A model generated the notes under the pieces. That model had not been told where the DNA came from and did no database searches. It saw only the letters and a list, made by a program, of their open reading frames with translations. DNA of 64,000 bases, taken from positions 2,767 through 66,766 of the forward strand of contig CAYPVU010000046.1 of assembly GCA_964414295.1 (NCBI GenBank). The letters are read 5' to 3'. Every line of letters begins with the position of its first letter. The stretch's first letter is position 1. Source of the DNA: an uncultured Candidatus Saccharibacteria bacterium (GTDB taxonomy: Bacteria; Patescibacteriota; Dojkabacteria; J137). The translations under genes were made by a program, and so were the position numbers. Of this stretch, positions 3,681 to 34,893 are shown piece after piece.

Positions 3681-3695
3681 TTTAAAAAATAAATA

Positions 3696-6165: not shown

Positions 6166-6183
6166 CAATTAAAATTAAATAAA

Positions 6184-6429
6184 ATGAGAACTACAGCTAA
6201 AAAAAGTACTACTATTAACAAACGTGTTAATACTACTAAAGCTAAACGTAATTTACCTACAGGTATTTATTCTAGAGGAAATGGTACTTATAGAGTAATG
6301 GTTTGGGCAAATAATAAATTAAACTATTTAGGAACTTTTACAAGTTTAAATAAAGCTAAACTCGCAAAGAGTGAATGGAAAGGTGCTCCTAAAAATGGTA
6401 GAAGAAAAACAAAAACAAGTAGAAAATAA
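6184..6429 (+). CDS. AP2-domain DNA-binding protein
   Basis: LPTGIYSRGNGTYRVMVWANNKLNYLGTFTSLNKAKLA matches the AP2 beta-sheet/helix pattern (GV.....g.w.a.i....k...LG.F.t.eeAa.A). Confidence 0.45.
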   Translation: MRTTAKKSTTINKRVNTTKAKRNLPTGIYSRGNGTYRVMVWANNKLNYLGTFTSLNKAKLAKSEWKGAPKNGRRKTKTSRK

Positions 6430-7213
6430 CTATAATCCTGAATTACAGGATTTTGTAAATGTGTCTAATAACTTATTAGAAGTTCTATCTTCTAATGATA
6501 AGTATGATTACAATCTTTTAAAAGATGCTATTCAAGAAACATATTTTGAATTTATTAAAAATAAGATAGCTGGTATTAAATATAAGGGTGAGTTTTATTT
6601 TAGAAACTATCTTAAAACTATAATAAAGAAAAAATATGTTAAGTTTATATTTAGAGTTGGTAAAAGAAACACTTCAGAAGATATTAATAAATCTCAAATA
6701 AATATTTTTAGTAAATATCATGATTTATTAGAATCTGAAGATGTTAATTTTGAAGAAACATTAAGTGATTATTTACATTTATTAGATGAAAATAATCCTG
6801 AAAAAGTTTTAATATTTAAAGAGTTTTCATCTTTTTTAGATGAAGATAAAAATAAAATATTAAAAAAGCTTTATGAAGGATATGATACCAATGAAATTAA
6901 AAACCTTTATAATATATCTTCTAACAAAGTAACTCGTTCAGCTATTAGTAGACAAAGGCTAAAATTTAAATCTCATTTTAATTTAGACGTTAAAACAGTT
7001 AAGACTAATACTTTGAGTTACAAAAGAAAAGATGTACAAGGATCATTAAATAAATGGTCTAAGTTATCTGATAAAGATGTTATATTTATTAAGAAATTAA
7101 TTAAACTTGGTTTATCTAATACTTTAATCGTAGAAAAGATTAATCATAAAGTTAATAGAAGTACTATAAACAGAATTAGAACTAATAAACTTTGGACACA
7201 TATAATAGTATAA
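6371..7213 (+). CDS. hypothetical protein, possible transcription regulator/sigma-like
   Basis: The C-terminal third has an HTH-like segment (YNISSNKVTRSAISRQRLKFK). The start is probably the internal Met at about 6395. Confidence 0.3.
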   Translation: MNGKVLLKMVEEKQKQVENNYNPELQDFVNVSNNLLEVLSSNDKYDYNLLKDAIQETYFEFIKNKIAGIKYKGEFYFRNYLKTIIKKKYVKFIFRVGKRNTSEDINKSQINIFSKYHDLLESEDVNFEETLSDYLHLLDENNPEKVLIFKEFSSFLDEDKNKILKKLYEGYDTNEIKNLYNISSNKVTRSAISRQRLKFKSHFNLDVKTVKTNTLSYKRKDVQGSLNKWSKLSDKDVIFIKKLIKLGLSNTLIVEKINHKVNRSTINRIRTNKLWTHIIV

Positions 7214-7260
7214 CTCTACTTATTCTAAAGATAAGAAGTTGTTAAACTAGTTTTGATAGG

Positions 7261-7290
7261 TATTATAGGGAGTTAATTCTCCCTATAATA
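7261..7290 (+). terminator. perfect 12-bp-stem hairpin TATTATAGGGAG-TTAATT-CTCCCTATAATA (terminator or operator)
   Basis: 30-nt perfect palindrome in the 116-nt gap after the 6371..7213 gene. Confidence 0.4.
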
Positions 7291-7329
7291 TTAAAAACCA
7301 TAGAGTTATAAAATTATAAAATGTAAATT

Positions 7330-8250
7330 ATGAAAAAATTATTAATATTATTATTCTTATTACCTTTGTTTAGTATTGCTCAACAACAAAATCATTATAT
7401 TCCTAAAGAGAATATAATAGAAGATTATATTAAAGTTGGTAGTTGTGGTTCACCAGATGGTCCAGTATTACAAATAGCTAGCCCTCCTGCTAACTATAAT
7501 CAATTATTAACCAATGGTTATTGTAATTATAGTTATCCTACTACAGCTACTTTTACAGCTTGTTTTACATTTGTATCACCTGGTACTAGTGTTAGCTTAA
7601 ATGCTGGTTATTCTGCTAGTTGTGCAACAGTAACATTTAGTGGATTTACTTTATATAACAGTTCTTGTGCAGTAATAGGTACAGGATTGAATTTCAGTGG
7701 ATTAACACCTGGAGCTAGCTATACATGGTGCTTAACTATGAGAGCTAATGGAGGTCCTAGTTGTAACGGATTTACTACATTCTGTCCTTATTTCATGAAT
7801 ACTACTCCTTTACCAGTTAATCTAATAGAATATACTGCTAAAGTAGAAGATAGTATTGTTAAATTAGAATGGTTAACATTATCTGAAATTAATGCTGATT
7901 ACTATTATATTGAAAAAAGTACAGATTTAGTTAAAATTAGCTCATTAGAGCAACTTTCTGCTGCTGGTAATACTAATGTGCCAACTAAGTATAGAACGTT
8001 TGATTTAAAGCCTGAAAAAGGTATTAATTATTATACTTTAAAACAGGTTGATTTTGATGGTACAGTTTATGACTTAGGTACAAAAGCTGTGGTAATTAAA
8101 CATGAAATACATGAAAAGATTAACATTTATAATAGTAAAGGTCAATATATTGGTAATAGTTTAACTTCTGATTTATCACCTGGTTTGTACATAATTGAAA
8201 AAATATTTTTAAATGGTAATGTGGAAACAACTAAAATAATAATTAGATAA
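7330..8250 (+). CDS. secreted Cys-rich protein with a T9SS (Por) C-terminal sorting domain
   Basis: N-terminal signal peptide MKKLLILLFLLPLFSIAQQ. The C-terminus LEWLTLSEINADYYYIEKSTD...YYTLKQVDFDGTVYDLG...INIYNSKGQYIGNSLTSDLSPGLYIIEKIFLNGNVETTKIIIR fits the Flavobacteriia T9SS type-A CTD consensus. Confidence 0.65.
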   Translation: MKKLLILLFLLPLFSIAQQQNHYIPKENIIEDYIKVGSCGSPDGPVLQIASPPANYNQLLTNGYCNYSYPTTATFTACFTFVSPGTSVSLNAGYSASCATVTFSGFTLYNSSCAVIGTGLNFSGLTPGASYTWCLTMRANGGPSCNGFTTFCPYFMNTTPLPVNLIEYTAKVEDSIVKLEWLTLSEINADYYYIEKSTDLVKISSLEQLSAAGNTNVPTKYRTFDLKPEKGINYYTLKQVDFDGTVYDLGTKAVVIKHEIHEKINIYNSKGQYIGNSLTSDLSPGLYIIEKIFLNGNVETTKIIIR

Positions 8251-8510: not shown

Positions 8511-8537
8511 AGGGAGCTTAACTGCTCCCTCTTTTTA
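8511..8537. terminator. bidirectional rho-independent terminator between convergent operons
   Basis: AGGGAGC-TTAACT-GCTCCCT hairpin with an A-run upstream and a T-run (CTTTTTATTTTTT) downstream. It sits between the + gene ending at 8435 and the - gene ending at 8535. Confidence 0.5.
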
Positions 8538-11500
8538 TTTTTTAATATCTCCATTTACATAATCATAAAAGTACTCTAATCTTCCCCAACCTACTATGAA
8601 TCTTCTTGATTTCTTACCTAGTTTATGATCTTCTCCAGTTAAAGCTTTCCAAACTTCTTTAAACCAGTTCATACCATCTTCTAAAGTACCAGAAGTAGCC
8701 ATAGGAGATTTTAAGATTTCCATTGCTGAGCCTAAACTTACAAAGAATGTTAATTCAGATACTAATCTATCAGATATTCTTGTAACATATCTCTCAAACC
8801 AAGTATCGTCATCATCACCATCATCAGACTTTAAAACAGTTACTAAACCAATTAATGCTGTAATAACAGCCATTTCTAATAAAACTCCTTTAAGATTAGA
8901 TTTTTCCATTTCAGATAGTTCAGAGAATTTCTTTTTACCTCTTAATATACCAAAGCCTTCTCTTAATAAAGTTCTATATCTACCTTCCACCCAAGTTTCT
9001 AATACATAATCATATTTCTTAGCTCCCCATCTAGACTCAAACTGTCTAGGAATCCAGTTACGATGTTGCATTAACAATCTACCCATTATAGTTCTATTGA
9101 TAGCTGCTTTATCATTAGGGTCTAAATTACCAGTTATATTTTTAATAACATGTAATACTTTCTGTCTAAATACTGCTATTTCTTCAGTAGTTGGTTCAGG
9201 TTTATTAGGATTATTCCAAACTAATTCTCCATCTTTAATAGTATAATCATTAAAAGATATACCATATTTACCTTCTAACATCATAGCCATCATTACAGAG
9301 TTCTGTAAAGCAAATTCAGATACTTTATATAAAGAATAAAAATGACTAGTATCAAATATCTTTTTAGATTTATAAGCAGTTAATTCTTTTGCATATTCTC
9401 TACCAAAGAAACCTGTAACTATATCAAATTTCTCCATTAGTAGTTTAGCTTTTTTATCATTTTCTGTAATACCACCATTACCTAAAGTAGCATATTTATA
9501 AGCTTTACCAAAGTTTTTAGTACTATAATATTTACCTGTTATAGCAGCAAAAGAAGCATTTGTTATATTACCTAAATGATCTACAACTGGAGCAAATAAG
9601 TTTAAACCTAAGTTCTTTAAAGATGTATAAGCTATTACTTTATCAAAAGCTTTATCTAAACCATATCTTTTACCACCTATTTCTATACCAGTTCCTTCTT
9701 CTTTAGCTCTCCCATAAAATACAGTATCTATATAATCTTTTAAGTGATTATAAGTATTAGTATTATCAGCTTTCATTTTCTTAGTACCATCAGGCATAAC
9801 TGCCTCAATAGCTTGAGTTTCTTTAATTTTATCTAAAGTAATTAAAGCAGTATTTTCTACTTCTTTTAACTCTCTATATCTATAAGCACTATCAATAAAT
9901 GTATAAAGTACTTGTCCTAAATCATAAGACTTTCTTTTATCCATAAACTCTCTTCTTTCTTCTCTATTATAGAATACCATTTCTTGAGCACCTAATACAG
10001 GAATATCATTAACTCTTTCACCAGTAATAGGATTTCTTAAACCATATTCTTTTTCATCCATTGTAAATTGTAAAGATTCAGAAGCTTCTTTTGGTAATTG
10101 TTTAATAGCTTCTAAAAAGCCTATATCCATAGCTTTCTCTACAAATTGTTTAGTAAAGTTTGGAATAAAGTTACTTCTAACATCTTTCATTGGTAAAAAC
10201 TCAGATACATCATCCATAGTTTTAGTATAAAGATCATAAAACTCTTTAAGTCTAGAATCATTTTGTATTTCTAAATACTTAGGATCAGCCCAGATTTCCA
10301 TCTTAGGTTTTCTAAACTTATTATTGTTTTTATTTCTTTCTTCCCATACTTTGATATTTTCATTGTATTTCTTTTCCCAAATATTATCAGCAATTAATAA
10401 TAGTTCATCTTGTGTTCTATCTTTATATTTATCAGATTTATTAAGATTACCTAATATTTCTACTATATCATATTTCTTTCTACCTTTTAATACTTCCTCA
10501 TAATTTTTTTTAGACGTTTTATACTTTTCATCATCTTTAATTGTATTCTTAGTAAACCATTCATCATTATTACTTCTAAGAGCTTTATTAAATTCTAACC
10601 AATAAGAATATTTAACAGGAGCTACTAAATTACCTGTTTTATTACCTTCATCATCTATTTGAAGCATTCTATCAAAATCAGAACTAGTTAGGTTATTTTT
10701 ATCAATAACAGCTTTAATTTTATTTTTTAAAGTATAAGAATCTTGTCTGCTCTTTTCTAAAGCTTTAGTAACCATTTTATAAACAGAAGCTACTAAAGGA
10801 TTTTCTGATTTACTAACACCTAACCAAAATCTAGACCACATAGAAGTTTCTACTTGTGGTTGTAAAGCATCTTCAGGAGATACTATACCATTTTGTCCTA
10901 ATATTTGTTGTTTAGTTAAATTATCACTAATAATATTAGTAGCTATTTTAAGCATAACACCTTCTAATCTCTTAGCAGTACCAACTATACTATCTACTAC
11001 AGCATGATCTTTTTTAGTTTTTAATTCTTCATCTGATAATATACTATTAAGATTAGTATATAACTTTAAACTATCTTTAATATCTTGCCAATTTAAACTA
11101 GGATCAAAGTTATCATCAGTTAATAAATCTTCTATAATAAGTAAATCTCTTTGTATAGCAGGTAATATACTAGCTAATGTTCTCTGTTTCTGTAAGTTAG
11201 AAATATATGTTTCTCTTGTAGAAATAAAATCTTTTATTTTTTCTTTCTCTTTCTCATCAGTTTGTTTAGTTAATTTTCTCTCTAATATTTCTATTTGAGT
11301 TCTAAAATTATCTATCATTTCATCAATCTTAACTATACCAGTTTTTTCTAAACCTGTAGGAATAGAATTGTTATACTCAAATGATTTTAAGAAATATTTT
11401 TTAGTATTAGTAGTTTTATCATCTTGTATAGTATAAGTATTAGATATAGGTATAATACGTTTTTTAGCTACTTTAGAAGGAAGTATACCTAGTTTAGGAT

Positions 11501-13154
11501 CACCTTTTTCAAGTATCTTAACATATTCATTAATCTGAAGATTGTAACCTTTCATTTTATTTTTATGAATACCTGATTTACTACCAGGTTTAACATCATA
11601 AATATCTAAAGTACCATCTTTCCTAATAATAAGGATATCTATTGTACCAGCTCTTTTACTAGTAGTATTAGCAACCATTACTTCAGATAATACAATAGAA
11701 CCATCTTTTTTAGCCTCAGCTATAATATCAGCAATAGTTTCTATACCAGAATCAGAACTTCTAGTATTAAGTTTAGATTTTAATATACTATATATAGGAT
11801 TACTAGAATATTTAGATTCAATAGGTTTTAAATGCTTATTCTCATTAGGAAAAGCTTCTCTAATTAATTCTGATACTATTGCATGTTTTAATAACCCTAT
11901 TTGCTTTTCTCTTTCATTTTTCTCTATATCTTCTTTAGTTTGAGTAGAACCAGCAAATCTTTTATTATAATCCTCTTCTACCATTTCAGTAGGTGATTTA
12001 TAACCTTTTTCTCCTAATACTTCATATCTCTCTCCTTTAGCTCCAGTTTCATCTTTTATTATTTTAGATTGTAACTCTTGTAAAGAAGTTAATATAGATT
12101 TTTGAGATACTTCTCCAGCTTGATAAAAATCAGAATCTTCTAATGTTTGATTATTTTTTTTAGACGTTTTACCAGAGAGTATTTCAGAAGCTATATCTTT
12201 ATAAGGATTAGATACTTTATTATCAGCTATTCTAATAGCATCAGATAACTTAGTTAATCCTACATTCTTTAATATTCTTTTTAATACATTTAATACATTA
12301 TCAAACCATCTATTAGCTTTTTCTATATTAGCTTCAGTTTCTTCACCTTTAAACTGTTTAACTATATGATTAGCTATTAATTTACCAATAGCTTCTTCTT
12401 TTATCTTATCTATATTAGATGTACCATCTTCATTCTGATATGCTACAAATGAACTATATTCAGCTAAAGTAGCTTTATATATCTCATATTTAGTTATATC
12501 CTTCATCATCTTATTAAATAAAGGATTATCTTTACCTAATAATCTTACAGCAAAGTGAGCAGCTTCTTCAGATAAAGTATCTAATCTAGATTTACCTTTA
12601 ACTACTTGTATTAAATTATCTAATAACTTAGCTCTAGCTATAACATTTAAAGGATTTCCTTGAGAATCTGTTATCTCATCTAATTCTTCTACTGTTACAC
12701 CAATACTATCTAAATATTCCTTTATAATATTATCTAAGTTTTCGTTAGCATCTTCCATCATAGAAGATACTTGATAATTACCTGATTTTATTTTTTCAAT
12801 ATTAGCTTTTCTACCATTAGAATAAGTTAAATAATAATTACCATTAGATGCTTTAGCTATATCTAAATTTAATTTTTGAGCCTCTTGTCTTAGTTGGGCT
12901 ACATGTACTAAACTACTTGGAGCAAAACCACTTTGATTAATATTCCATTTATTAAGAAAAAAATTAATATCTTTTTCAGATACTTGATAAAAATCAGTAT
13001 TAATATTAAGCTCTTCTAAAGTAGGAAATCTATCATAATTATTATTCTTAGATTGCCATACAGAAAACTTAGCAGCTACTAAATATGAAGGTAATCCTAA
13101 TCTATCAGCTGCTTGTTTTACTTCAGGATGATTTTTATTTATACAAATAATCAT
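8535..13154 (-). CDS. large virion (probably ejected) protein, 1539 aa, with an acidic patch and a C-terminal transmembrane helix
   Basis: Last gene of the late operon, with a 4-nt overlap to the giant ORF. The C-terminal region has GVLLEMAVITALIGLVTVL followed by DDGDDDD. Confidence 0.45.
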   Translation of the reverse strand: MIICINKNHPEVKQAADRLGLPSYLVAAKFSVWQSKNNNYDRFPTLEELNINTDFYQVSEKDINFFLNKWNINQSGFAPSSLVHVAQLRQEAQKLNLDIAKASNGNYYLTYSNGRKANIEKIKSGNYQVSSMMEDANENLDNIIKEYLDSIGVTVEELDEITDSQGNPLNVIARAKLLDNLIQVVKGKSRLDTLSEEAAHFAVRLLGKDNPLFNKMMKDITKYEIYKATLAEYSSFVAYQNEDGTSNIDKIKEEAIGKLIANHIVKQFKGEETEANIEKANRWFDNVLNVLKRILKNVGLTKLSDAIRIADNKVSNPYKDIASEILSGKTSKKNNQTLEDSDFYQAGEVSQKSILTSLQELQSKIIKDETGAKGERYEVLGEKGYKSPTEMVEEDYNKRFAGSTQTKEDIEKNEREKQIGLLKHAIVSELIREAFPNENKHLKPIESKYSSNPIYSILKSKLNTRSSDSGIETIADIIAEAKKDGSIVLSEVMVANTTSKRAGTIDILIIRKDGTLDIYDVKPGSKSGIHKNKMKGYNLQINEYVKILEKGDPKLGILPSKVAKKRIIPISNTYTIQDDKTTNTKKYFLKSFEYNNSIPTGLEKTGIVKIDEMIDNFRTQIEILERKLTKQTDEKEKEKIKDFISTRETYISNLQKQRTLASILPAIQRDLLIIEDLLTDDNFDPSLNWQDIKDSLKLYTNLNSILSDEELKTKKDHAVVDSIVGTAKRLEGVMLKIATNIISDNLTKQQILGQNGIVSPEDALQPQVETSMWSRFWLGVSKSENPLVASVYKMVTKALEKSRQDSYTLKNKIKAVIDKNNLTSSDFDRMLQIDDEGNKTGNLVAPVKYSYWLEFNKALRSNNDEWFTKNTIKDDEKYKTSKKNYEEVLKGRKKYDIVEILGNLNKSDKYKDRTQDELLLIADNIWEKKYNENIKVWEERNKNNNKFRKPKMEIWADPKYLEIQNDSRLKEFYDLYTKTMDDVSEFLPMKDVRSNFIPNFTKQFVEKAMDIGFLEAIKQLPKEASESLQFTMDEKEYGLRNPITGERVNDIPVLGAQEMVFYNREERREFMDKRKSYDLGQVLYTFIDSAYRYRELKEVENTALITLDKIKETQAIEAVMPDGTKKMKADNTNTYNHLKDYIDTVFYGRAKEEGTGIEIGGKRYGLDKAFDKVIAYTSLKNLGLNLFAPVVDHLGNITNASFAAITGKYYSTKNFGKAYKYATLGNGGITENDKKAKLLMEKFDIVTGFFGREYAKELTAYKSKKIFDTSHFYSLYKVSEFALQNSVMMAMMLEGKYGISFNDYTIKDGELVWNNPNKPEPTTEEIAVFRQKVLHVIKNITGNLDPNDKAAINRTIMGRLLMQHRNWIPRQFESRWGAKKYDYVLETWVEGRYRTLLREGFGILRGKKKFSELSEMEKSNLKGVLLEMAVITALIGLVTVLKSDDGDDDDTWFERYVTRISDRLVSELTFFVSLGSAMEILKSPMATSGTLEDGMNWFKEVWKALTGEDHKLGKKSRRFIVGWGRLEYFYDYVNGDIKK

Positions 13155-16100
13155 TGGTTATTCTTTAAACATTTTAACATTACTCTTTTATCTTCTTCAG
13201 TACCCATATTAAAGTAACTCTCAGTAATATCTTGAGCTTCTAACTTATCTTTAACTTCTTGTATTAAGTTTGCAAATATAATACTTTTATCTGAATTAAT
13301 CAAAGAATTTATATAATTATCTAAATTATTAAACTTATCTTTTATACCATACATTTTCATTTTTTTATTGAAATCTTCAGTATTAAAGTCTTCAGTAAAA
13401 GTATAACCATCGTTATATGTTATTTTAGCTGTAGTAACATTATTGTTAACAGAAATAACATTTATTTTAATGTTATTAAAGTTATTCTTAGAATCTATTT
13501 TATAGTCTATAATTGGTGTACTAGTTTCTTTATTCGGATGATCTATAGAAAACTCTTGATTTTTAAGTATATAATTATCTAAATTATCTGTAACTTTAAG
13601 TTCTTGTCTAACTTCCATTAATAATTTAGGAAACTCTTTACCCCATTTACCTTTATCTTGTGTATGTGTAAGTTCTGACTTTCCTGTAGCTAATAATTTT
13701 TGTAAAGCTTTTGGATTTTGTTCAAAAGAAGCTTTTATTAACTGACCCATTAATTCCGTCTGTTGTGCATCAGTAGTTGTACCTAAAGGTCCTCTAAATT
13801 TAGAAACAGTCATTACACCATTTCTATTAAAAGGAATATAAGCTCTGTTATCGTAAGTAGCTTTATCAAACTTACCGCCTTTTAAAGATTGGTATGCTTG
13901 TTCCACAGAATTAAAAGAAACACCTTTAAAAGTAAAAGGTCTAACAGCAAAGTTACTCAACTCAGCATTTTCATTAGTATCTGCGTAAATATTAATTTTA
14001 GGTAAACTTGGGTCAAATAAATTATCTATTGGTGCTTCTTTAGCAGGAACAGATAATTCAACTGGATTTAATAAAGCACTTGTTAATTCATCTTCTATAA
14101 CATTATCTTGCTCAACATTAGTTTCATTTATTTCAATAGTAGATATAGGAGTAGGTTTAACCATATTATATTCATTAACTCTTCCTAAAGAATCAGCAAT
14201 AAAGTTTCTTTGCTCTAAAGTTAATCCAGTATTATTTTCATCTATAATACTTTTCTTTTTAGTCTTATACCATTCTTGTAAATTAGCTCCATTACCTAAA
14301 GGATTATCTATTACAAAAACAGGCATATCTTGAGAATCTTTACCCATATTTTCATAGATAAACTCTCTCTTAGCATCAGGATTCCACATTTTAATATACT
14401 TTTTATTAGAGTATACTTTATTATAATCAGATTTTTTTAAAGAAAACCCTAAAATTCTATCACCATCTTTATATACTCTATTAGTATTATATAAAGGTAT
14501 CATTTCTTGTAACTCTTGATTAAATACCATATTATATAATTTAAACTTAGATAATACAGTTTTCCAATTATTTTTAGCAAATTGAACTACAAATCCTCTA
14601 GTAATACCTTCTTGATCTTTAATATAAGCTTCTTTAAATAAATTTAAAGCTCTTTGTAATACTGGTATCATTTTATCAGCAGGTAAGTATTTCATATAAC
14701 TTAAATAACTTTCTGCTATACCAGATTGAAATAAAGCTAAATCTATTAATTTACCTCCTAAAGCAGGATTAGTATTAAATAACTCTTGTATAGAACCTGT
14801 TATCTGATCTGATGTATATTTATTAAACTTTTTATTAATAAACTGTACATTATCTATACTTGATTTATTTTTAATAAGAGGTATAACATATCTATTTATA
14901 AATAGATTATTATGTAAAGGATGATTAGGATCTCTCTTAATAGCTAATATTTGTTTACCAACAGAGTTATCACCTAAAAATAATTCTTTTAATAAATTTT
15001 GGTTAACTAATGTTTCATCTAATCCTACTAAGTATACATAATTTAAAAATGAATCAGTTATAGTATCTAATAATTTTTCATCTTGGATATCTCCTTCTAT
15101 GTTCATAAATGATTTAATTTCATTTAAGAACTTTTTATATAAAGGAGAACCAGTTAATAATAATTGCCCCCATAAGTCTATTGAAAATTTAGCACCATTG
15201 TTTTTAAATCCTCTCATAAAAGTAGCATTATATACTTCTTTTAAATTAGGTATTAGTACTCTACCAATAGGAACAGTTGGATCTATACCAGCTTTTTCTT
15301 GTTTAGCAATATAATTATAAGCACTAGGAAGATCTTTACCTACACCAAATGTATCATCTTTAGTAGCATTAATAGCATCAGTATACAATTTAGAATCTTC
15401 CATTAATCTTAAATAGTCATCTAATAATTGTAACTGTAATTTAGCATTTTCTGCTTCAGATAGTTGTCTAAGTTCTCTTAAATTATTAAAGTTAAAAGTA
15501 TTATTACCTAGTATATTATCTCTATCTTTTTTGTATTGAGTGTTTACAAACTTTATAACTTCAGGTTCTTTAGCATCATATAAACTATATTGATATAACT
15601 TAACAGAATCTTTGTTTAATTGTTTAATATACTTATCTCTTATTTTTTTAATTACTTCATTTTTACTTAAATTATTCTTACCAGTTAAACCTTTATTAAT
15701 TCTAGATTCTTTCACAAAATCTCTAATAATAGGTTGATTTAAGAACTCTATAACAAACTTATAATCAGCTCCTATAGAAATCATATATAAAGCTAAATCA
15801 GTTGTCATAGGATTAATATTCATCTTAGAAATAAATGGATCTTTAGCATTATCCACAAATGCTGTTAAGAACTCAGAAATCATTTCAGATATCAATGTAT
15901 TTCCTTTATTATCATAAACACCAGCTAATGATGGATATCCTTCTTGAGTTTTATTAAAATCAAAATTATAACTAAATCCTGGAACTACATATAGATTAGC
16001 AATTTGTGATAATATGTGGAAAGTATTGTGTAATGCTGATTGACCAACACCTGCTTTACCTTCCATATTTCTAACATGAGTATCTAATATTGTAGGAAAC

Positions 16101-19100
16101 TCTATTAATTTAGATCCTTTTACTTTACTAGAACCATCATCATAAAACTCTTCATATAGTTGTTTAAGCTTAGTACTACCATTAGGAGTAATTAACTGTT
16201 TAAATATTATATCATTAGGACCACTATTTCTTAATACAGTATGATTAATTTGATTTAATCTATTTTGTAATATTTGCTCTTCTGATAAAGGTTTATTATC
16301 AAAGTTATGATTATTAATAAATATATTTAATTTATCCACGTCAAAATCAGAACCACCTTGTGCAACTATCTCAGAAGGTACTACAACAGATTGTCCAGAT
16401 TCAGCAGGTAAAAATCCTACTATTTTAAAACTAACCATTGAGTTAAGTCCTTGTGTAGGAATACGATATCCTAATACATCTAATAATTCAGGATTAATTT
16501 TAGCTAAGTCTTCAACTGTTTTAACACCTTTATCAGCCCACATATTAGGAACTAATATTTCAGCTTGTAGAATCTCTTTACCATTTTTATCATTCTTTCT
16601 AACAAAAGCTAATCTTCTAGATCCTACTTCTTTATCAGTTTTCATACCAACAGTTTCAAATCCTGTTGATGCTACTTGAATTAATGTAGTACCTTTAGTT
16701 TTTTGTTTAATAATTCTATTATTAACTAAAGCTTGGAATAAGTTTTCTATTTTATTTCTAACTACAAGAGAATCTAAACTAGCCTTTAGTTTACTAGGAT
16801 TGTCTTTATCATATAATTCATCAAGACCATCTATAATATTCTCAGGTAAATTTCTTTGTCTTACTTCAGCCTTAATTAACTTTAATAGTTTTTCAGTATT
16901 ATTAAAAGTATAAATATCTTCTTCTTTAGTTACACCTAGCTCAGATAATAACTTTTCTTTAGATATTTCTGTAAGTCTATCTATAATATCAGAATACTCA
17001 TTAAATAATTCAGTAGCTGTAACTTCTTTATTATTATAAAAGTCAATTAACTGATAGTTATTATCAACACCTAGACCAAATAAATTAGAGAATAATAGTT
17101 TTCTTAGCTGTGTACCGTATAATATATTAGTTTTAACTTCCTGATTAGTATCTAACTGTAATCTTAAATAATCTAATCTTATTTTATTAGTATATAATTC
17201 TCCTTTATTAGATATTTTAATATCACTATTAGGATCATTATTTACATATAAATCATTTAACATAACCTTTGAGGGTGTACCTACTTTATTACCTGATTCA
17301 AATACAGCTATACCTACTCCATTATTCATTAAAGATTTATTTAAGTTCTCTAATTTACTACCTTTAATCATTGTAGGTAATAAAGGAACTAATGATAACT
17401 TTAAATAGAATGGTACATAAGAATCTTTATAATTTAGATCTGGTCCATAGTGCATTGGTTTTATTGGACTAAATAAAGCAAACTCTTCTTTAGTAATAGT
17501 TTGGTTATTCATTAATTTCTTATAAGCAGCTTCATGCGAATCAGACCAATAATAACCACCTAATCTAATCATATAATCTCTAAATGCAGGTAATGTAATA
17601 TATCCTTGAGCATCTGCTTCATTTAATTTAGCATAAGTTTCATCTACTATAGCAGGATCAATATATTTTTTATATTCATCTGTTAATAAAGATGTAATTA
17701 TAACATCCTTATAAACAGCTACTTTCATAGTACCATCTGTAGGATATTCAGATACTTGCTCAGGAAGTACGTTAATAAAATGATCTCTATATATTAAATT
17801 ATTAATATAAGAATCAATAGCAGGTATCTTACCAGTTGCTATTATACCAGGAGTTCTTTTATAGAAATCTTTAAAATAAGCTAAATCACCAAAAAATAAT
17901 TTAGTTTGTTCTATTGCACTAATTAACTCATTAACTCCAAATATAGCAGCTATTTCATTAATTTTATAAGATTGTAAGTTTTTACTTAAATCTGAAGAAG
18001 TTACATTAAACTCTTGTAATTTAGGTAATAATCTATTATTAGTATAATCTGTTAGATAATCAAATAACTCTCCTCTAAATCTATCTAATAGTTCATCATA
18101 TACTTTAGTACCTTCAATAATAGGTAACTTATAAGTTATTAAATCACTTTTTAGTTTATCAGATAACCAATCAAATAATAAAAACTCTTTACCATTTTTA
18201 TCAAACTCTTCTACTCCTTCTAATGTATCATAACTATTGATTCTATTAAGTTCATCTAATACATATCCAAAGAATTGTCTTTGTAACTCAGGATTAACAG
18301 ATACTCTATTATTATCTATTTGTATATCTTCTTTAGTAAATACTTTTAATCCTTTTAAACCATATTCTAATTTCTTATCAGCAGGTCTTAATAAAGTATG
18401 TATTTTATTATCTAATAAGTCTATTATCCTAGATATAATAATATCTTTTTCAGATAGCTTAGAATGATGTTTAGATTCTTCTTCAGCACTAATACCATCT
18501 CTAATAACTATTTGTAATTTACTATTATTTTTAATCTGTCCTAACCAAGTACTATGAACAATATTTTTATTGTTAGCAGTATCTAATTGAGGTAATACTT
18601 TATTATTTTTTAAATCATTAATTATTTGAGCTAAATAATTATATAAAGTAACAGCATAAACAGATTTACCTTCAGAATTAATAAAGTTTAATTCTATTTC
18701 ATCAACAGAATTAAGAGCTTCCATATTAATTAACTGTTTAAATCTACCAGCAGATATATTATCACCATAGTTAAACCATTCAGTAATTTGTTTATCTTCA
18801 TTTATACTTTTTAGTACTTCAGCTTTTAACTCAGCTACTATACCTTTAGCTTTCTTATAAGTTTCTTCATTACTTAATTTAATACCTAAAGAATCTAAAA
18901 ATAATTTATCATTATCTTTAACACTATTATATAGTTTTAATTTTTCTTCTTTAGTTCCAATAGAATATTTAGAATTTTTAATTCCTGATAAAAACTCTTT
19001 TCTAATTTTACTTTCAAGCTTTTCTGTAATAGCATCTATAGAATAAATGTTACCATCTCTATCTACAATTGTTTTTACATAGTCATTTTTAGTTTTACTA

Positions 19101-22100
19101 AATGCTTGAACAAAATCATATAATAATCTAGCTTGATCTAAATCTTTAATAGTTAAATCTTCAGTAACTCCTAAATGATCTAATATTTGATACATCCAAG
19201 GATATTGATTAACATTGTTTTTAAGAACATTAATCATAGAAGGCATATCAGTAATACCATTTAAAGTTTCAGCTAATATAGCCCAAGTTTTATCAAAGTC
19301 TACTAATTTAACTTCTCCTTTAGCTATTGCAGTATAAAGGTTACCTTTATCATTAAACACACTAGCATCTTTATATTCAAATAAATTGCGTATTAATAAT
19401 TTAATAGTATTAGGTAATCCATTCTTAGATGAAAATTCAACAGATGGTTTAAAATCTAAACCTGAGTTTCTATCATTTATTTTAATCTCATCATACTCTT
19501 CTACTTCATTAAATGTAGATAACCCAAACTCTGATAAATTATCATAATGTAATTTAGAAAACTCATTCCAGTTTTGTATAATTAAACTATATAATTTTGT
19601 ATCTGCTACAGAATTAGCTTCTTTAATATAATCTAATAACATAGGGTAGTAGTAAACTTCTAACATCCCTTTATCAGATATTTTACTTAAATGCTTTTGT
19701 GAAAATCCTCTTTTAGTATAGATATTCATGAATATAATATTCATAGCATCTAAAGCAGTTTTAACTTGTTCTTGAGTTAAACTTACTTTTCTAGTAACAT
19801 TATTATCATCAGTATAATTAAATATTCTAACTCTAAAGAAGTTATTATTAGTTGTATTTAATTTATTTAAATTACGAGTAATAGGTGTAGCATTAGCATA
19901 CATACCTTTATTAATTTTATTAAATAAAGTATCAGCATCTAATGGTTTACCTAATATTAAATGTTTAAAGAAATCAAATATCTTTTGGAAGAAATTCTTT
20001 TTAGTTTTTTCTTCTTTATTAAATTTTAATTTACCATCTGATAATACATAATCTCTAAACTCTTCAGCTAATGCTTCTTCCACTTCTAAATCTGTAGCAT
20101 TAGGTTTATTGTGTCTTTTTCTATAATCATTGTATAATGATAATCTTTGCTTATCATTTAAAAATAATTGTGATACTACGTGAAAAGCTTCATGGTAAAC
20201 AGTACCTACTTCTGCTACTTCAGATACTTCAACTGTACCTAATTTCTCAGCAGATACATAAAATCTACCAAATGCTTCTTGTCCATATTTAGCAACTTCT
20301 ATTAAATCAGATACTTTAAGAAACTTAATTTGAGGAAATCTTTCTCTAAACCAAGCTTCTTCTTTTTCCATATCTATCTTTTCATATGGATTATTATCTG
20401 TTTTAAGTCTAAAATTAAAAGGTAGAGCAATATCTCCAGATTCAGTTAAATTAATATCTAATGCAGATCCTGTGGTTGTTTCACTGTTAACTTCTGTTTT
20501 ACTAATTACAGGTTGACTAGCAGATTGTATATTTAAAGCTTCTAAAGCAGCTTGTGAAGCATCATCTATTACTATACCAGTATTATCAACAGGTACTTCT
20601 TCTTGCATACCTTCTTTAATATCTATATCTATATTAGTAATATCAACAGCTTGATTTATATCACCAAATGCAGACATTACAGACTCATTGACTGTAGGAT
20701 TATTAGTTGGTGAAACAGGCTCTGACTTATTACCTAATACATTAGATAAGCTAGTGCCAGTAAGAGTAACTTTTTGAGTAGAAGTAGTCTTAGCTATAGG
20801 TTGATCATATAGATTATTAGAATCATATGAAAAATATACACTTAAAAATCTTTTACCAGTATTATTAACGTTCCCTACAACATCTGTTGAAAATATAGGA
20901 GTTCTCTTTTGAGGAGCTATAGATTTACTACCAGGTGTAGCATGAGCAGTTAAATACTTAGCATAACTATCATATAAGTTATAGTTTTTAATTTCAAGCT
21001 TTTTATCTTTTATTTCCCAATTAGTTATCTCTAAATGTTTACTAGTATTATCTCTTTGTTGATCTAATAATTTTTTAGATACATTATTTAATTTATTTTC
21101 TAATAACCAATCTTTTAATAACTTTTGATTTTGTTCATCAGCTATCTTATCCATTGTAATAGTATTTTCACCAAATACTAAACTATTAGCTTCATAATCA
21201 AAGTATATAGCAGTCTTAGGATTCTGATTATTATTTCCCCAATAAATTAAAGATCCTATAATAGAATAAGATTTATCTTGAATATTTTCAGATTGTTTAG
21301 ATGGTACTAAATAATATTTAAAACCATCTATCATAATATGATTTTGTCTAAAATTAGATAAATCACCATTAGATATATTAGATATATATTTTAATATATC
21401 TATAATTAAATCAGCATTTTTACTAGAAATATTATTAGGTACTAATTCAGCAACTGTACCTTCAGGTCCTAATATTACTTGCCCATTAGCATTAGGAATA
21501 AAGTAATATAAAGCTCCTGATTTTCTAACATTTTTAATACTACCATCAGGTAATACTATATGAGGAGTTTTATTATTCTCAGTGGTTTGTGCTACAAATA
21601 AAGACTTATGTAAATTATCATCTACACCAAAAGTTTCTTCTACATTATTTCTAGCTCTTTGTCCATTTCTAGTAACAATAGTATTTAATATACCATTAGA
21701 TTTACCAGTAACTTTTAAATATACAGGTTTATCAGATGACTTAATTTTATTTCTAAAGTCCTCAAACTTTTGAATATCATCTACTCTACGTTTATTATAT
21801 TCTTCTTCTGTTTCACCAGGTCTAGTTTCTGAAGCTAATACTCTATCATAATATGTAGGTTCATGTATAAATGCATATAGATGTACTCCATCTACTATAA
21901 CAGGTTCAGTACCATTATATAAAAATACTTTGATAGTACCATCTTCTTGTGCTTCAGCTCTTAAAAAATAATTATTATCTACAGTATTATTCTTAGGATC
22001 TCTTAGATAATCAAACCATTTATCAGCATCATTTTCAGTATTAAATTCTAACTGACCTTCTTCATTAAATATATCTTCATACTCTCCAGTATATAATACA

Positions 22101-25100
22101 TCTAATCCAGCAGTAGAATATAAATTAGGTTTAGCTTTTCTAGTTAACTTATGAGTAGTTTTAGCTACATCTAAAGAATTATCTTTTGTATCATTAGACT
22201 CTTGTTCATTAAAAGATATTTCTCCAGGTCTAGATACACTATTAGTAGATTGTTTAAATAAGCTAGAATAACGTTTTTTATGCTTATCTAATACTTTTTT
22301 ATATTTAGCTAAAGGTTTTAACTCAGCTTTATATTGTTCTAATAATCTTTCTTTTTCTTTTATTAAATTTTCTAATATAGCTGCTTCATTTTCTCTTAAA
22401 GTAATTTCTTCATTAAGAGCAATATTTTCTTTAGAATTAACAGGTAAGTTATCTAACTCTTTTATAGAATTAACTTTATCTAATAACTTTTTAAAATATT
22501 CATATTTACCTCTTAACGCAGCTTTAAGTTTATTAATTATTTGTTTTAAAATAGATAATGATTCTTTAGCTGTAGATATAGCCTTTTCTGTATCTTCAAT
22601 TAATTTTTCTAATTGAACAGCTCTACCATCTAAATCAACTAAATTAAGAGAAGCTAACTCAGGTCTTTTAGATTCTAAATCGTTTTTCTCAGATTCTAAT
22701 TTACTTATTTCAGATTGAATAGAATAATAAATATTATTTAATTTTTCAATCTTTTCTAAGATAAATTTATTTTTTATTTTTTTCTTATCTTTAGTAATAT
22801 TAGATATTTCTTCTAATATTTTATTAGCTTCATTTTCTTTAGCTGTTATTTTTCTATTAATAGAATCTATTCTTCGATCTAATTGAGATAGAAGTTCATT
22901 AATTGTAGCTAATCTACTAGCAGCATCAATAAAGTCTTCATTAGCTTTATTTCTTAAACTTAAAGCAGCTTCATCTAACTTACGAGGCTTATATTTATTT
23001 TTGTTTTTGAATAACTCATTAATAGCATATCTAGTAACACCACCAGTAGGTTTGTGTACTTCTAAGAACTTATTACCAGAAGCATCTTGTATTACAGTAC
23101 CTTCTAATATTTGTCCATCTATATCTACTTCTACAATGTCACCAGTATTATATTCAGCTTCAAATTCTTTTAATTCTGTTTCATCCTTAGCAGCTTTAGT
23201 TTCTTTTTCATTAACTATTTTAGTAGCTTCTTCTTCTTTCTTTTTAGCTTCTTTAGCTTTCTTCTCAATAGTTTGAGGATTAGTTAATTCATCAAATCTT
23301 TTATAAGACTTTCTTAATTCTTTTATAAAAGCTTTTCTTTCTTTCTCTAAAGCTTCTAAATCTTTTTTAGAAGGTGATCCTTGTAGTTCATCAGAAAGTT
23401 CTTCAGCAGCTTCAGAAAGAGCTTCAGCAAATAAGTTTTTATCTTTTTCTAATTCTGCTTGTTTAATAGATACTTTATTGTTTAAAGCTTCTAAACCTTC
23501 TTTTAAACTTTTTTGTACTAAGGCTTCATTAAATATTTGATTTCTAACAGCAGGAGTAATTCCTCCAAATCTATCTGTTAGTTGATTATATAATTGTTCT
23601 AACTCTAAAGCTTTTTGTCTATATTCTCTAGATATAGTTTTACCATCTATAACATTACCTTTAGAATCTTTCATTTCAGGTAATACTATACCTTGTTGAG
23701 CTAATTGCTCATTAGTTAAGTCTTTAAGAGAATCTATCTCATTTAATAATCTTTCTCCTAAACCAGCTTCAAAATGAGTAAAAGCCCATCTATTAAATTG
23801 CTGATCTTTAAAGTAATTAAATAGTTCTTCACTACCAGCCTTAGCAGCTAGTTCTTGAGCTTCTTGTAATTTACCAGATTGTGCGTATTCTTGTATAGTT
23901 TTAATTATAGCATTCTTATCAACTTTTAATTCTCCAGTTTTTTCATCTTTAGTAATAAATTTACCAAAAGTATCATTCTTAAACTGATTAGCGTCTATAA
24001 GCTTTTTAAGATCTTCTAATTGTTTTCTTTCAGCTTTACCTCCTTCACCTATAGCTTTAGCAGAAGCTCCAAATAATCCACCTAAGATCATACCTGCTCC
24101 CATTGCATCCCAACCTTCTTTAGTTGTAAATGCGTTCATATATTCTTTAAATACTCCAGATATAGTTCCTAAATCTTCATAATCTGGTTCTAAATATTTC
24201 TTTTTATTATATTCTTGGAAAGCGTGTTGTAAACCTTCTTCAACTATACCTTCACTAAATGCTTGAGTAGCAAACTCTTTACCTATTTGTTTAGTAACAG
24301 CTTTCTTAGGTAAAGCAATAGTACCATCTTCTAATACATCTAATAAAGCTTTTCTACTATTATTATATCTTCTAAACCAAGAAGCAGCTTGCATCTTTTC
24401 TAAAGGTAATAGTAACATATTTAAACCAACTGTAGACATAGCAGCTTCAGCAGCTTTTTTCTTAGCTGTAGAATCATCATATCCTTGATTTAATAAATCA
24501 GAATATACTTCATCATATGTTTGTTTACCTTCAGCAATAGACTCTATAGATCTTGCAACACTACCAACAGTCCATTCAGATAGTTCTTTTGTAACTTTAT
24601 TTAAAGGAGTTTTTTGTAAGCTATTTGCATTTAATACTTTAATAGCAGCTTTATCTCCCATACTAGCAGCTTGTTCTAAAGCACCTAATTCTCCTATACT
24701 TAATCTAGTAGCATCAGATAATCTTTTACCATATAAAGATTTAGTAGCAGGTCCTATTAATTTACTAGCCCCATAACCAGTTAAATAAGCAGAAGCTATA
24801 AAAGCAGCACCATCAACTAAATCATCTGTCCAATAATCTAAGTCTGTTAAAGCTCTATGTAAGAAGTTTTTATTTTGATCAGCTTTAGTATTATAAATAG
24901 GAAGAGCTTCTTTTATACTTTCTTCAATATCCATAATAGCTCTAGATACAGGATTTTCAAATAAAGCAGAAGCATCTTGTTGAATAAGAGCAGAAGGAAT
25001 ACCTATTAGTATATCAGATATACTTGTAGCAGCTTTAGTAACTGTAGTACCAGCTAATCTACCTATACCATGAGCTACTGATTCACCTATACCAAATCTT

Positions 25101-30714: not shown

Positions 30715-33700
30715 TTATCTAGAAGATATTCTAAATATAGTAGTTAGTAAATGGAATATTAATTTTTTATTATTGTTATTATTATAAGTAAATCTAGCTT
30801 TAATATACTTATCTCTTAATCTATCTAAAGTACTAGATCTAGGTATAAATAATTGCCAAGTTCTTTCTTTACGTTTAATAGTATTATTAGGAGTTAATGT
30901 TATTAAGTTAGACTGCTGATAATCAGTATTACATATAACAGTATTAAATGTTTCTTCTAATTGATTATTATTAGTATCTAATACTTCAGTAAGTAATTCA
31001 AAATTATCAAAAGTCTTAGTATAAATAGGTTTATCATTAGCAATAATATCTACAGTAGAATCATATATAGTACCATAATATTCACAATAATTGTCTTTAC
31101 CATGTATGTATAATTCATTAGGTATTGTAGGATTAGGTGTTATAATACGTTTACCATCATTTATATAAATAGTTGGTTTAAATGATAGGAAACTAATAAA
31201 AGCATCTAAAGACTCATCATAACTAATAGTGAACTTATTATTCACTTGTATTTTATTATTTAAATTTACTATTTCTGTTTCAACAGAAGGATATTCATTA
31301 TATTGTTTACCATCTAAATCTTTAAATGTATATAGTACTTCATTTCTAATTCTATTATAAGTACCTGTAATACCACTAAAATCTTGATGTATTGGGTTAT
31401 CTTCAAGTCTTATATTACCTTTTAATATATCTTGAAAGAATGAATGTAGACCTTTTATATCAGATACTGATTGATTTTGTCCATTAAATCTATAAAACTT
31501 ACGTTTTAATATATCTAACCAATACACAGAGTCATCAGTTTGTACTAAACTAAATTGATGTTTAGTACCAGTATCATTAGATATATATTTATGTGTTTGT
31601 ATTGTACTACCAGTACCTAATATTAAATCTGTTGTTCCTTGTATTAAAGCTGTAGGATTAATTAATATTTGTGAGAAAGCTCTATCTTGAAATACTAAAG
31701 CATTATCTCTAACTACTACTGCACCATTAATTGGACCATATACAGACTCTAAATCATAAAATCTATTAGTTTTCCATATAGTCCAACTATCTGTTAATTC
31801 TCCATTTATTTTCTCATTAGAAGCATAGATTCTACAATCATATTCTTGTTGATTAATAAACTCTAATGGTTTAGGTAAATATTTAACTATATCATTATCT
31901 ACAGAATATACTAACTGATATACAAAATCATCACCAAAGAAATGTGAATAAGAGTTGTTTGTTTCTTCAACAGAATTATAACCAACTCTGTTCATACTCA
32001 TTCCTGTTCCTACTCCTCCTTGTATAGCTCCATTATACCATCTAACATCAAAATTATAAGAAGATTCACAAGGAAAATACCATATTGCTCCTGCTCTAGA
32101 TATTACAGAGTCTGTAATATTTATACCATTTCCCCAACCTTTAAATAAAGCAAAATGATCAAAAACAGATACAAAAGTATCTCCTCCAAAACAAGTAACA
32201 GAAGTACTATTACCTAAATTAGCAGAACTAATAGGTATTAATCTGCTACAAGCTATATATTCATTTTGAGCTCTATTTTCATATCCTTTACCACCATATT
32301 GATTAGGATTAGGTCTATAGTAATGAACATAATAGTGTGCAGGAGAACCTGGAACATGTGGAAGAGTTTCACCATTATCTAGTACTAAAAATAAACAAGT
32401 ATTACCTGCAAATCTAACTTGATTTGGAGTATGTGCTAAACTACCATCTGTTGGTACATGTGTATTATAACATTGTGAACCATTAGATAATGTTACACTT
32501 TGTGTTAATACATCTGTGCTTGGAAAATGAGCTTGACTTATTTTACAATCCTGAATTTCAGAAAAAATACTATTAGAATAAAATTTAGGAGAACCTCCAT
32601 TAGAATAAAACTTATAAAAGAATACAGAATTTTCAGCTGGATAAGTACCTATAGAAGGCTCATATACAGTAGTATGATCTCTAGTTATATAACCTCCTAA
32701 GTATATTTTATCTCCTGTTTGAAATTTAAAAGTTTTATTAATAACTATTTCTGGAGATACTAATACAAAATGATCATCTGATATAACATTTGCTCTTAAA
32801 GGTTGGTGACTATCTTCATTAGCATCTAATAAATCAGGAGTCCCGTTTAATAAATCAGATCTATGTAAAGTACTATTACTAGTTTCTCTAAACATATGAT
32901 TCATTAAACCATTAAATAATATAGTTTTATCTGAATCAGTTCTTTTAACTCTAACTATAGAATATCCACTTATTTTATCTTCTATTAATGAAGTATTAAC
33001 TTGAAAATTTACACCCAAATTATATATAGTAGAATAATCAAAAGGGCTACTACTTGTTACAGCACATATTCTTTCATCAATAGGCATTTTAATATCACAT
33101 ATCCATTTAACAAAGTAAGGTTTACCTTCTTTATTAAAAAATTGAATACCAAATCTATAAGTTTCTCCTCTTTGAAAACCTTTTAATAATCCACTAGTAT
33201 AAGCACCATTAGCTTCAAAAGAGTTTTTATTTACATATTGTCTATTAGAAGAGTCTAAAGTATATGTATTATTAGTTCTTCCTTTATTTCTATATCCAGG
33301 AGCTACTATAGATTGTCTGGAATAATCTCTAAAAGGATTAACAATAATTTCATCATTAGTAGGATAATTAACAAAATTAAAAGATATATTAGGTCCTATA
33401 CCACCTACATTTCCAGAATTATCATAAATATAATCATCATCATTAGGAATTATACAGTCAGCTTTAGGATCTATTTGATTATTAGTAGGCACAGTATTAG
33501 TTATAGTAAATTCATTAGCTCCAGATATATTATTAATATCCATTACATAATTACCATTATCTAACTTATATCTAAAAGCTCTGGCATCATATTCAGGTAA
33601 ATCATCCATATCACTTCTAACATTAAGAGCAAATAGGATATTGTCTTTAGTTATAAGTTCTTTACAATGGGTAAAGCTATATTTTAAGTCTAATAGTTCA

Positions 33701-34893
33701 TCTAAACTAATAGTACCTAGATTTTCACTACCAGAATCAGTAAAAGTATAAGGACCTAAAGAAGGAGTATTTTCATCTTTAATTTTAGTAATTGTAGGAT
33801 TACTTGTGATAGTATCTCTATATATTCTATATACTTCTATTCTATTATAATCAGCATCTGGATAATTAATTATACCTCTAATAGACTTGGTGGTAGTTAC
33901 ACCAACACTACCTCTTATATCTGTTACCCAATTATCTAATTTATCATTACCTTCTAATATATAAATAGGATAACTTAAATCTGAAAATACTGTTTCTTGA
34001 CCTCCAGTAGTTCTTAAAAAATAAGCATATTGTACTATACCTGTTTTGTGAGAACCTCCTGATTGTAAAATATCTGTTAGTATAGGAGTATCTAAGTTAA
34101 CAGCAGATGATACACTTAAATTATCTATATCTACTAAAAATCCATTAGGATCAGCAGTATTAAACTTTCTTAATTTATTGTGAAAATCTGTAAAATAAAT
34201 ATTTTGAGTTTCTGGTATTTCATATCTTCCTATAACTCTTCTCATAGGATGATATTTAGTAAAACCACAAACATTGTTATATAATAATTCTAAATTAGTT
34301 ACAGCATCAGATTTATCATTATACTCTAATTTCCATATTTGACCTATACCATTAAAATCATTAGTATCATGATTAGTAGTTAATAATATTATAGTATCTC
34401 TAATAGTAGTCCAACCTATTACTTCTAAATCTGTTTGAACAGGTATTTTAACTGTAAATTGAAAATCTGCTGTGGCTGAATAAGTAATATTTACAAATTG
34501 ATTAACTGCTGTAAATACTAATCCTGTATTTTGATTATTAACCCAAACTTTAATTCCTAAATTTTGTAAAACAGTATCAGTATCAAATTCATCAGCTAGC
34601 TTTTTTAAAAATCCTTTTAATGTTAAACCATTTCTTAATACAGATTTATAAACACCATTAATAGTAAAACCACTTGCTCCAGTTATAGGAAAGTTACCAC
34701 CATTATATACAGCTTCTATAACAGAACTAGTATTAGGTATAGTTAAAGATAGTTCATTACCTTTATAATTAACTAAAGCTCCTTGATTTCTTCCTACACC
34801 AAAATTTAAAGCATCTTTATAAGTATTTTTATTTTGAATTAAATTAGAAGCATCTTTATTCATGCCTCCAACAAATGTATTAATACTTTCCAT
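30715..34893 (-). CDS. tail fibre / tail spike-like protein (1392 aa)
   Basis: Very large beta-rich protein with Asn/Thr/Tyr-rich composition, placed downstream of the lysis cassette in the late operon. Confidence 0.4.
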   Translation of the reverse strand: MESINTFVGGMNKDASNLIQNKNTYKDALNFGVGRNQGALVNYKGNELSLTIPNTSSVIEAVYNGGNFPITGASGFTINGVYKSVLRNGLTLKGFLKKLADEFDTDTVLQNLGIKVWVNNQNTGLVFTAVNQFVNITYSATADFQFTVKIPVQTDLEVIGWTTIRDTIILLTTNHDTNDFNGIGQIWKLEYNDKSDAVTNLELLYNNVCGFTKYHPMRRVIGRYEIPETQNIYFTDFHNKLRKFNTADPNGFLVDIDNLSVSSAVNLDTPILTDILQSGGSHKTGIVQYAYFLRTTGGQETVFSDLSYPIYILEGNDKLDNWVTDIRGSVGVTTTKSIRGIINYPDADYNRIEVYRIYRDTITSNPTITKIKDENTPSLGPYTFTDSGSENLGTISLDELLDLKYSFTHCKELITKDNILFALNVRSDMDDLPEYDARAFRYKLDNGNYVMDINNISGANEFTITNTVPTNNQIDPKADCIIPNDDDYIYDNSGNVGGIGPNISFNFVNYPTNDEIIVNPFRDYSRQSIVAPGYRNKGRTNNTYTLDSSNRQYVNKNSFEANGAYTSGLLKGFQRGETYRFGIQFFNKEGKPYFVKWICDIKMPIDERICAVTSSSPFDYSTIYNLGVNFQVNTSLIEDKISGYSIVRVKRTDSDKTILFNGLMNHMFRETSNSTLHRSDLLNGTPDLLDANEDSHQPLRANVISDDHFVLVSPEIVINKTFKFQTGDKIYLGGYITRDHTTVYEPSIGTYPAENSVFFYKFYSNGGSPKFYSNSIFSEIQDCKISQAHFPSTDVLTQSVTLSNGSQCYNTHVPTDGSLAHTPNQVRFAGNTCLFLVLDNGETLPHVPGSPAHYYVHYYRPNPNQYGGKGYENRAQNEYIACSRLIPISSANLGNSTSVTCFGGDTFVSVFDHFALFKGWGNGINITDSVISRAGAIWYFPCESSYNFDVRWYNGAIQGGVGTGMSMNRVGYNSVEETNNSYSHFFGDDFVYQLVYSVDNDIVKYLPKPLEFINQQEYDCRIYASNEKINGELTDSWTIWKTNRFYDLESVYGPINGAVVVRDNALVFQDRAFSQILINPTALIQGTTDLILGTGSTIQTHKYISNDTGTKHQFSLVQTDDSVYWLDILKRKFYRFNGQNQSVSDIKGLHSFFQDILKGNIRLEDNPIHQDFSGITGTYNRIRNEVLYTFKDLDGKQYNEYPSVETEIVNLNNKIQVNNKFTISYDESLDAFISFLSFKPTIYINDGKRIITPNPTIPNELYIHGKDNYCEYYGTIYDSTVDIIANDKPIYTKTFDNFELLTEVLDTNNNQLEETFNTVICNTDYQQSNLITLTPNNTIKRKERTWQLFIPRSSTLDRLRDKYIKARFTYNNNNNKKLIFHLLTTIFRISSR

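Follow-up and report, generated by a model that had tools for sequence, protein, structure and literature searches.

We analyzed a 64-kb window (64,000 nucleotides; G+C content, 27%) of contig CAYPVU010000046.1 from assembly GCA_964414295.1, and focused on its 4074-aa open reading frame (ORF), which very probably encodes a virion RNA polymerase. The predicted polyprotein consists, in order, of an N-terminal extension, a zincin-like domain, a module resembling the RNA polymerase gp66 of phage phi14:2, a NADAR domain and a C-terminal tail (Table 1). The peptide VAQGGSDFDVDKLNIFINNH (aa 3004-3023; window 16307-16366) contains DFDVD at aa 3010-3014, the sole DxDxD within the ORF. The initial annotation of this DNA interpreted DFDVD as the catalytic loop of a crAss-type two-barrel virion RNA polymerase; its numbering of the aspartates (D3010, D3012 and D3014) is exact in the ORF translation, and 1060 residues follow the motif up to the C-terminus, against the ~1000 it had given. 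From the composition of the ORF, ~1.27 DxDxD and 0.056 DFDxD occurrences are expected by chance. The bare DxDxD pattern is not significant and carries little weight; because it is expected more than once by chance, the case for DFDVD must rest on homology and fold.

Table 1. Coordinates of the predicted polymerase polyprotein gene, its parts and two neighboring genes in the window.
Feature	Residues (aa)	Window	Strand	Basis or landmarks
Predicted virion RNA polymerase polyprotein ORF, 4074 aa		13151..25375	-	ORF list and translation
Putative zincin-like metallopeptidase domain	~1653-1830	19886..20419	-	HEAFH aa 1728-1732 (window 20180-20194), EEALAEEF aa 1766-1773
gp66-like RNA polymerase module	1831-3737	14165..19885	-	Family profile positions 40-1923
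First double-psi beta-barrel (DPBB1)	~2588-2734	17174..17614	-	Invariant D2588, K2639, K2659, K2697 (SGNKVG); columns of the four-sequence (A1) and 30-sequence (A2) alignments; boundaries inferred
Connector between barrels, mostly helical	2735-2898	16682..17173	-	Maps to gp66 connector 1095-1238
Second double-psi beta-barrel (DPBB2), invariant YRIPTQG (R2971) and GSDFDVDK	~2899-3025	16301..16681	-	
DFDVD (D3010, D3012, D3014)	3010-3014	16334..16348	-	Aligned on gp66 1361-DFDID-1365; conservation
Bridge-helix equivalent (GKAGVGQSALHNTFHIL)	3092-3122	16010..16102	-	Maps to gp66 1529-1559
Trigger-loop equivalent, VDNAKDP, D3175 invariant	3161-3199	15779..15895	-	Maps to gp66 1598-1636
NADAR (YbiA-like) domain	3794-3930	13586..13996	-	Profile against PDB
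Crassvirus muzzle protein, upstream of cargo/polymerase gene block		30715..34893	-	Pfam crAss_MUZ 1.5e-146, crAss_MUZ_C 2.7e-13
Downstream 1539-aa ORF		8535..13154	-	Position matches g065 of phi14:2

Alignment to phi14:2 gp66, which the initial annotation had proposed as a check, revealed significant homology across the catalytic core. When the whole ORF was searched with phmmer against all PDB chains, the single strong match was 6vr4_A, the structure of gp66 (E = 3.3e-45), in which residues 2467-3040 of the query aligned to chain positions 865-1409 and residues 3032-3258 to positions 1486-1708. The gp66 protein translated from the phi14:2 genome record matched the ORF at E = 3e-46. A profile built from 30 family sequences matched 6VR4 over one stretch (chain 123-2100; E = 2.3e-188) and no other polymerase in the PDB; the same profile aligns to gp66 109-2086, and the two proteins are homologous over practically the whole length of gp66. 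In the pairwise alignment, aqGGSDFDVDKlnif lies on tkTGSDFDIDKmyvm, with GGSDFDVDK matching GSDFDIDK residue for residue, and DFDVD falls column for column on 1361-DFDID-1365 of gp66, with Val replacing Ile at motif position 4. Each single Asp-to-Ala change in this gp66 motif abolishes RNA synthesis; the enzyme requires Mg2+, is packed in the virion and transcribes the early genes, whose promoters lack a common motif, in a rifampicin-resistant manner (bioRxiv 10.1101/2020.03.07.982082). A DFDxD motif in a large virion protein is a published hallmark of the crAss-like phage family (bioRxiv 10.1101/2020.03.07.982082).

We then mapped the landmarks of the polymerase core by aligning both the 4074-aa ORF and gp66 to the family profile. 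The two proteins have in common the GSDFD[IV]DK loop, the DPBB1 lysines, the connector, the bridge helix and the VDNAKDP sequence of the trigger loop. K2639, K2659 and K2697 align to gp66 K1012, K1027 and K1064, which precede the connector of gp66, and were assigned to the first barrel because of this location. They provide the conserved basic residues that the initial annotation had expected in another barrel, and are followed by a connector of ~165 aa, in keeping with the gp66-family arrangement of two double-psi beta-barrels (DPBBs) on one chain with a ~140-aa connector. K2697, within SGNKVG, is presumably the counterpart of the GNKG lysine of the bacterial beta subunit. In two-barrel polymerases, the DPBB1 lysines bind the RNA product and the nucleoside triphosphate (NTP) (PMC9508822). 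Beyond the second barrel, both the bridge helix and the trigger loop of the gp66 family were located; in the trigger-loop segment of the 30-sequence alignment (segment numbering), D709 does not vary, and conservation reaches at least 90% at V708, K712 and D713.

The predicted fold is consistent with this mapping. We modeled aa 2467-3300 with AlphaFold2, using the 30-sequence alignment as input, and obtained a mean predicted local distance difference test (pLDDT) score of 81 and a predicted template modeling (pTM) score of 0.80. The model shows beta-strands in the DPBB1 region, connector helices (H321-347, H361-374, H379-388 and H407-423 in model numbering) and a long helix (H627-660) into which the bridge-helix equivalent falls. 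A Foldseek search with this model matched 6VR4 at E = 2.3e-34 with a template modeling (TM) score of 0.71, and all 50 of the 50 matches listed were RNA polymerases. Surroundings of a non-DPBB type, or a missing second barrel, would have spoken against the initial annotation; the model instead resembles the gp66 structure. Readings of DFDVD as a Toprim motif or a glycosyltransferase DxD motif were ruled out by the fold.

To place the protein in its family, we conducted an exhaustive phmmer search of 1.84 billion cluster representatives using aa 2420-3600 as the query, which returned 3842 relatives at E ≤ 1e-3 and 1370 at E ≤ 1e-30. The searched collection contained a protein identical to the 4074-aa ORF, located on an 86-kb Logan contig from SRR8581213, and the best non-self representative was 37% identical in the polymerase core. 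Two patterns derived from the alignment, G[SG]D[FY]D[IV]DK and VD.AKD, occurred in more than 514 IMG/VR viral loci, many of them on contigs of 80-130 kb; a single-sequence locus search in IMG/VR gave no match. A word-indexed protein search found just two matches with the single sequence and one with the alignment, most likely because the Lys/Asn/Ile-rich sequence saturated the candidate list.

Conservation was assessed in 152 retrieved proteins and in the two alignments of Table 1. At least 95% of the 152 family rows retain the pattern D-[FY]-D-x-D-K, and nearly all of these proteins carry DFDID, DYDID, DFDVD or DYDVD; ten fell outside our first strict pattern, and all except one, which is without the region, have the motif after a different preceding residue. 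K2639, K2659, K2697, G3008, D3010, D3012, D3014 and K3015 are invariant across the 30 sequences, as are R2971-I-P of YRIPTQG and D3175 of VDNAKDP. A DxDxD arising by chance in a large structural or cargo protein without enzymatic function would agree with the ~1.27 occurrences expected given the length and Asp content of the ORF, and with the fact that Pfam and PHROGs give the region no polymerase annotation. Such a chance origin is effectively refuted by the 6VR4 match, the invariance of the motif in the 30 sequences and the fold, motif loss in most orthologues not being seen, and we assign it virtually no probability.

The identity of the residue at motif position 4 distinguishes this family from other two-barrel polymerases. 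The initial annotation had likened the motif to a DxDGD-type hallmark, of which the aspartate triad is borne out; the Gly at the fourth position is not, and Ile or Val stands there in the gp66 family. Val accounts for 35 of 142 motif matches and is thus common, and Ile or Val instead of the Gly of DFDGD or DYDGD is typical of crAss-like enzymes. In cellular multisubunit RNA polymerases, the corresponding motif is NADFDGD of beta-prime/Rpb1 with a universally conserved Gly, and the barrels are divided between this subunit and beta/Rpb2; here both barrels are on one chain, Val replaces the Gly, and no sigma factor or other subunits are evident, so the protein does not classify as a beta-prime subunit.

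The polymerases of RNA interference (QDE-1/RDR) are likewise single-chain two-barrel enzymes. No sequence similarity to them was detectable with phmmer or the profile in the PDB, identity in the structural alignment was ~13%, and their accessory domains and biology differ. QDE-1 also has Gly at motif position 4, where our protein has Val; neither by sequence nor by the DxDGD motif does the protein belong with QDE-1/RDR. That the module is active but works mainly as a QDE-1/RDR-like RNA-dependent RNA polymerase, or as a primase-like enzyme, instead of as a DNA-dependent transcriptase, we consider extremely improbable. We also detected no sequence homology to the virion RNA polymerases P23-45 gp96, which is fused to a tape measure protein, P74 gp62 and P32 gp64, which belong to another phage lineage and involve another fusion partner. 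The closest counterparts, besides gp66, include the giant fused RNA polymerase polyproteins found in uncultured crAss-like phages. With a median length of 3821 aa across the 152 retrieved proteins, the giant fused form is common. The 4074-aa protein differs from them in sequence, the best core identity being 37%, and in its NADAR fusion. PhicrAss001 gp47, gp49 and gp50 represent a split version of such polyproteins.

The genomic context also points to a crassvirus. The strand that encodes the polymerase also encodes the major capsid protein (Pfam Crass_capsid, 4.5e-143), the portal and the large terminase (TerL), and the genes run in the order muzzle, 784-aa ORF, 799-aa ORF, 4074-aa ORF and 1539-aa ORF. 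This order parallels g070 to g065 of phi14:2 and the cargo block gp45-gp50 of PhicrAss001 (PMC10172136), so that the ORF lies within the virion cargo gene block of a crassvirus genome, at a position matching that of gp66. A megablast search of the 4074-aa ORF against 50,697 phage records gave no match, indicating that no close relative is deposited among them. With tblastn, the polymerase core had 146 matches in the phage collection, all below 60% identity (~24-28% among the 25 matches listed) and nearly all from phages named crAss-like, Bacteroides, Flavobacterium or Cellulophaga. For the major capsid protein, identity to deposited crassvirus capsid proteins does not exceed 36%. Taken together, the lack of megablast matches, the low tblastn identities and the distant capsid protein indicate that the phage is a deeply divergent crassvirus.

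Several observations weigh against equating the module with an active gp66-type polymerase. Identity to gp66 is only ~25-28%, and the fold evidence for the core comes from a predicted model. Pfam and PHROG scans of the whole 4074-aa protein detected the NADAR end alone; because neither collection has a model that detects the polymerase core, no curated family threshold is applicable, and automated annotation would call the gene hypothetical or, at most, NADAR. Mg2+-dependent, rifampicin-resistant, DNA-templated synthesis that is abolished by Asp-to-Ala changes was shown for gp66 alone (bioRxiv 10.1101/2020.03.07.982082), and for the 4074-aa protein activity, packaging and cleavage are predicted by analogy. 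In addition, the ~100-aa insertion that gp66 carries between the DFDxD loop and the LQNRL helix is missing, and the segment that blocks the cleft in gp66 is not recognizably kept. This last difference suggests that regulation may differ from that of gp66.

These two differences, the deletion after the catalytic loop and the poor conservation of the cleft-blocking segment, would also be in line with a degenerate, inactive polymerase relic kept for a structural or ejection role, as would reports that some crAss-like lineages have altered transcription machinery. Against such a relic, every family-invariant position is intact, including the three aspartates, K3015, R2971, the three DPBB1 lysines and VDNAKDP. 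Several other high-scoring members have a similar core length, with spans of ~770-830 aa, suggesting that the shorter core is a common variant. We therefore regard a relic as very unlikely. The homology, the conservation of the motif, the predicted fold and the gene context are instead best explained if DFDVD binds Mg2+ as the catalytic loop of a DNA-dependent RNA polymerase with two barrels on a single chain. This enzyme would be orthologous to phi14:2 gp66 and would take up aa ~1831-3737 of the 4074-aa protein, a virion cargo polyprotein of a divergent crassvirus; we have high confidence in this assignment.

By analogy with its relatives, the polyprotein would be packaged inside the capsid and would leave through the tail in a partly unfolded state, before or along with the DNA. 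Such an ejection of cargo has been modeled for the PhicrAss001 virion (PMC10172136). The polymerase may then refold in the host cytoplasm and transcribe the early phage genes independently of the host polymerase. In the active center, D3010, D3012 and D3014 of the second barrel would coordinate the catalytic Mg2+ at the interface of both barrels, and the invariant DPBB1 lysines K2639, K2659 and K2697 would hold the 3' end of the RNA and the incoming NTP. The bridge helix (3092-3122) and the trigger loop (3161-3199) would handle translocation and NTP loading, which would make the active center complete. Packaging, injection, the choice of template and proteolytic processing are the parts of this scheme that we infer.

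Compared with gp66, the 4074-aa protein has ~1830 extra residues fused at its N-terminus, including the zincin-like domain that directly precedes the polymerase module. Of 151 homologues, 88 have this domain fused to the polymerase as well, and HExxH is retained in 86 of 89; the AlphaFold2 model of the domain has a pLDDT of 72.6, and the sequence-level support is not significant. In phi14:2, HExxH instead occurs in a separate downstream protein, gp65, indicating that the domain order differs between lineages. The gp66 study proposed a protease of this kind as a possible activator of the polymerase or as an enzyme that cuts fused polyproteins (bioRxiv 10.1101/2020.03.07.982082), and the HEAFH domain probably processes or activates the polyprotein. 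The remainder of the extension (aa 1-1652; window 20420-25375, minus strand) contains no recognizable domain. Its first 450 residues are common to 29 of 151 homologues, aa 450-1050 are rich in Lys/Glu repeats resembling a coiled coil, and for aa 1050-1600 none of the top 151 proteins has a counterpart.

At the other end, the protein carries a NADAR domain that gp66 does not have. A profile of seven family members matched YbiA (E = 3.5e-17) and the NADAR structure 8bau (E = 1.6e-11) in the PDB, supporting its assignment to the NADAR family. With the single sequence, Pfam NADAR was matched at 7e-5 (23.6 bits, against a gathering score of 35.1) and phrog_1017 at 4e-11. Such a domain was present in only 10 of 151 homologues, and the copy in the window and its closest relative are without a segment found in the other five aligned copies. 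The combination of zincin, polymerase and NADAR in a single chain is thus a less common one. Stand-alone phage NADARs that neutralize DarTG1 are known (PMC11825919). We tentatively raise the possibility, which we consider rather doubtful, that the C-terminal NADAR enters the cell on the injected polymerase as a pre-packaged counter-defense and removes ADP-ribose from guanines of the incoming phage DNA while this is transiently single-stranded. The damage reversed may be, for instance, that caused by DarT1-type toxins, and the domain may act on the template of its own polymerase before phage gene expression.

We further examined the genes surrounding the polymerase. The start ATG of the downstream 1539-aa ORF overlaps the polymerase stop codon (ATGA, minus strand; window 13151-13154), suggesting translational coupling, and in 5 of 151 family members the polymerase chain includes a homologue of this ORF. 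It had no Pfam or PHROG match and is a probable RNA polymerase-associated cargo protein. Because phmmer searches of phi14:2 gp65 and gp67 against the 4074-aa and 1539-aa ORFs yielded nothing, the view that the N-terminal 1830 aa and the downstream ORF are orthologous to gp65/gp67 is argued from position and family fusions.

Elsewhere in the window, the TerL ORF (1013 aa; window 53542-56583, minus strand) has its terminase matches split into aa 113-372 and aa 483-993. A LAGLIDADG homing-endonuclease domain lies at aa 345-399, and the insertion ends in ...YIVTHN|SYKGAF, a typical HN/S junction of an intein C-terminus; the insertion probably represents an intein that harbors a homing endonuclease. 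A 366-aa ORF matching phage DNA repair exonuclease families (phrog_704, 1.6e-56; window 36892-37992, minus strand) was found inside the structural gene block, which is an unexpected location. In the opposite orientation, window 688-8250 (plus strand) contains replication/recombination-type genes, an AAA_24 ATPase, a PD-(D/E)XK/DUF3799 nuclease and a weak match to the CHC2 primase zinc finger, below the Pfam gathering score. This block is probably part of a replication module converging on the cargo genes. A search of the 64 kb for tRNA genes detected none.

Both the enzyme family and its motif have been well characterized before, and the 4074-aa protein is a divergent new member rather than a new system; what is known of two-barrel polymerases is unchanged. 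The assignment fixes the annotation of the largest gene in an uncultured, AT-rich (27% GC) crassvirus and contributes a deeply divergent member to a family in which gp66 alone has a solved structure. It also supplies exact candidate residues for mutagenesis, namely D3010, D3012, D3014, K2639, K2659 and K2697. The sole mildly novel lead is the NADAR domain on the injected polymerase: if the proposal is true, a virion-delivered NADAR tethered to the polymerase would represent a new mode of deployment.
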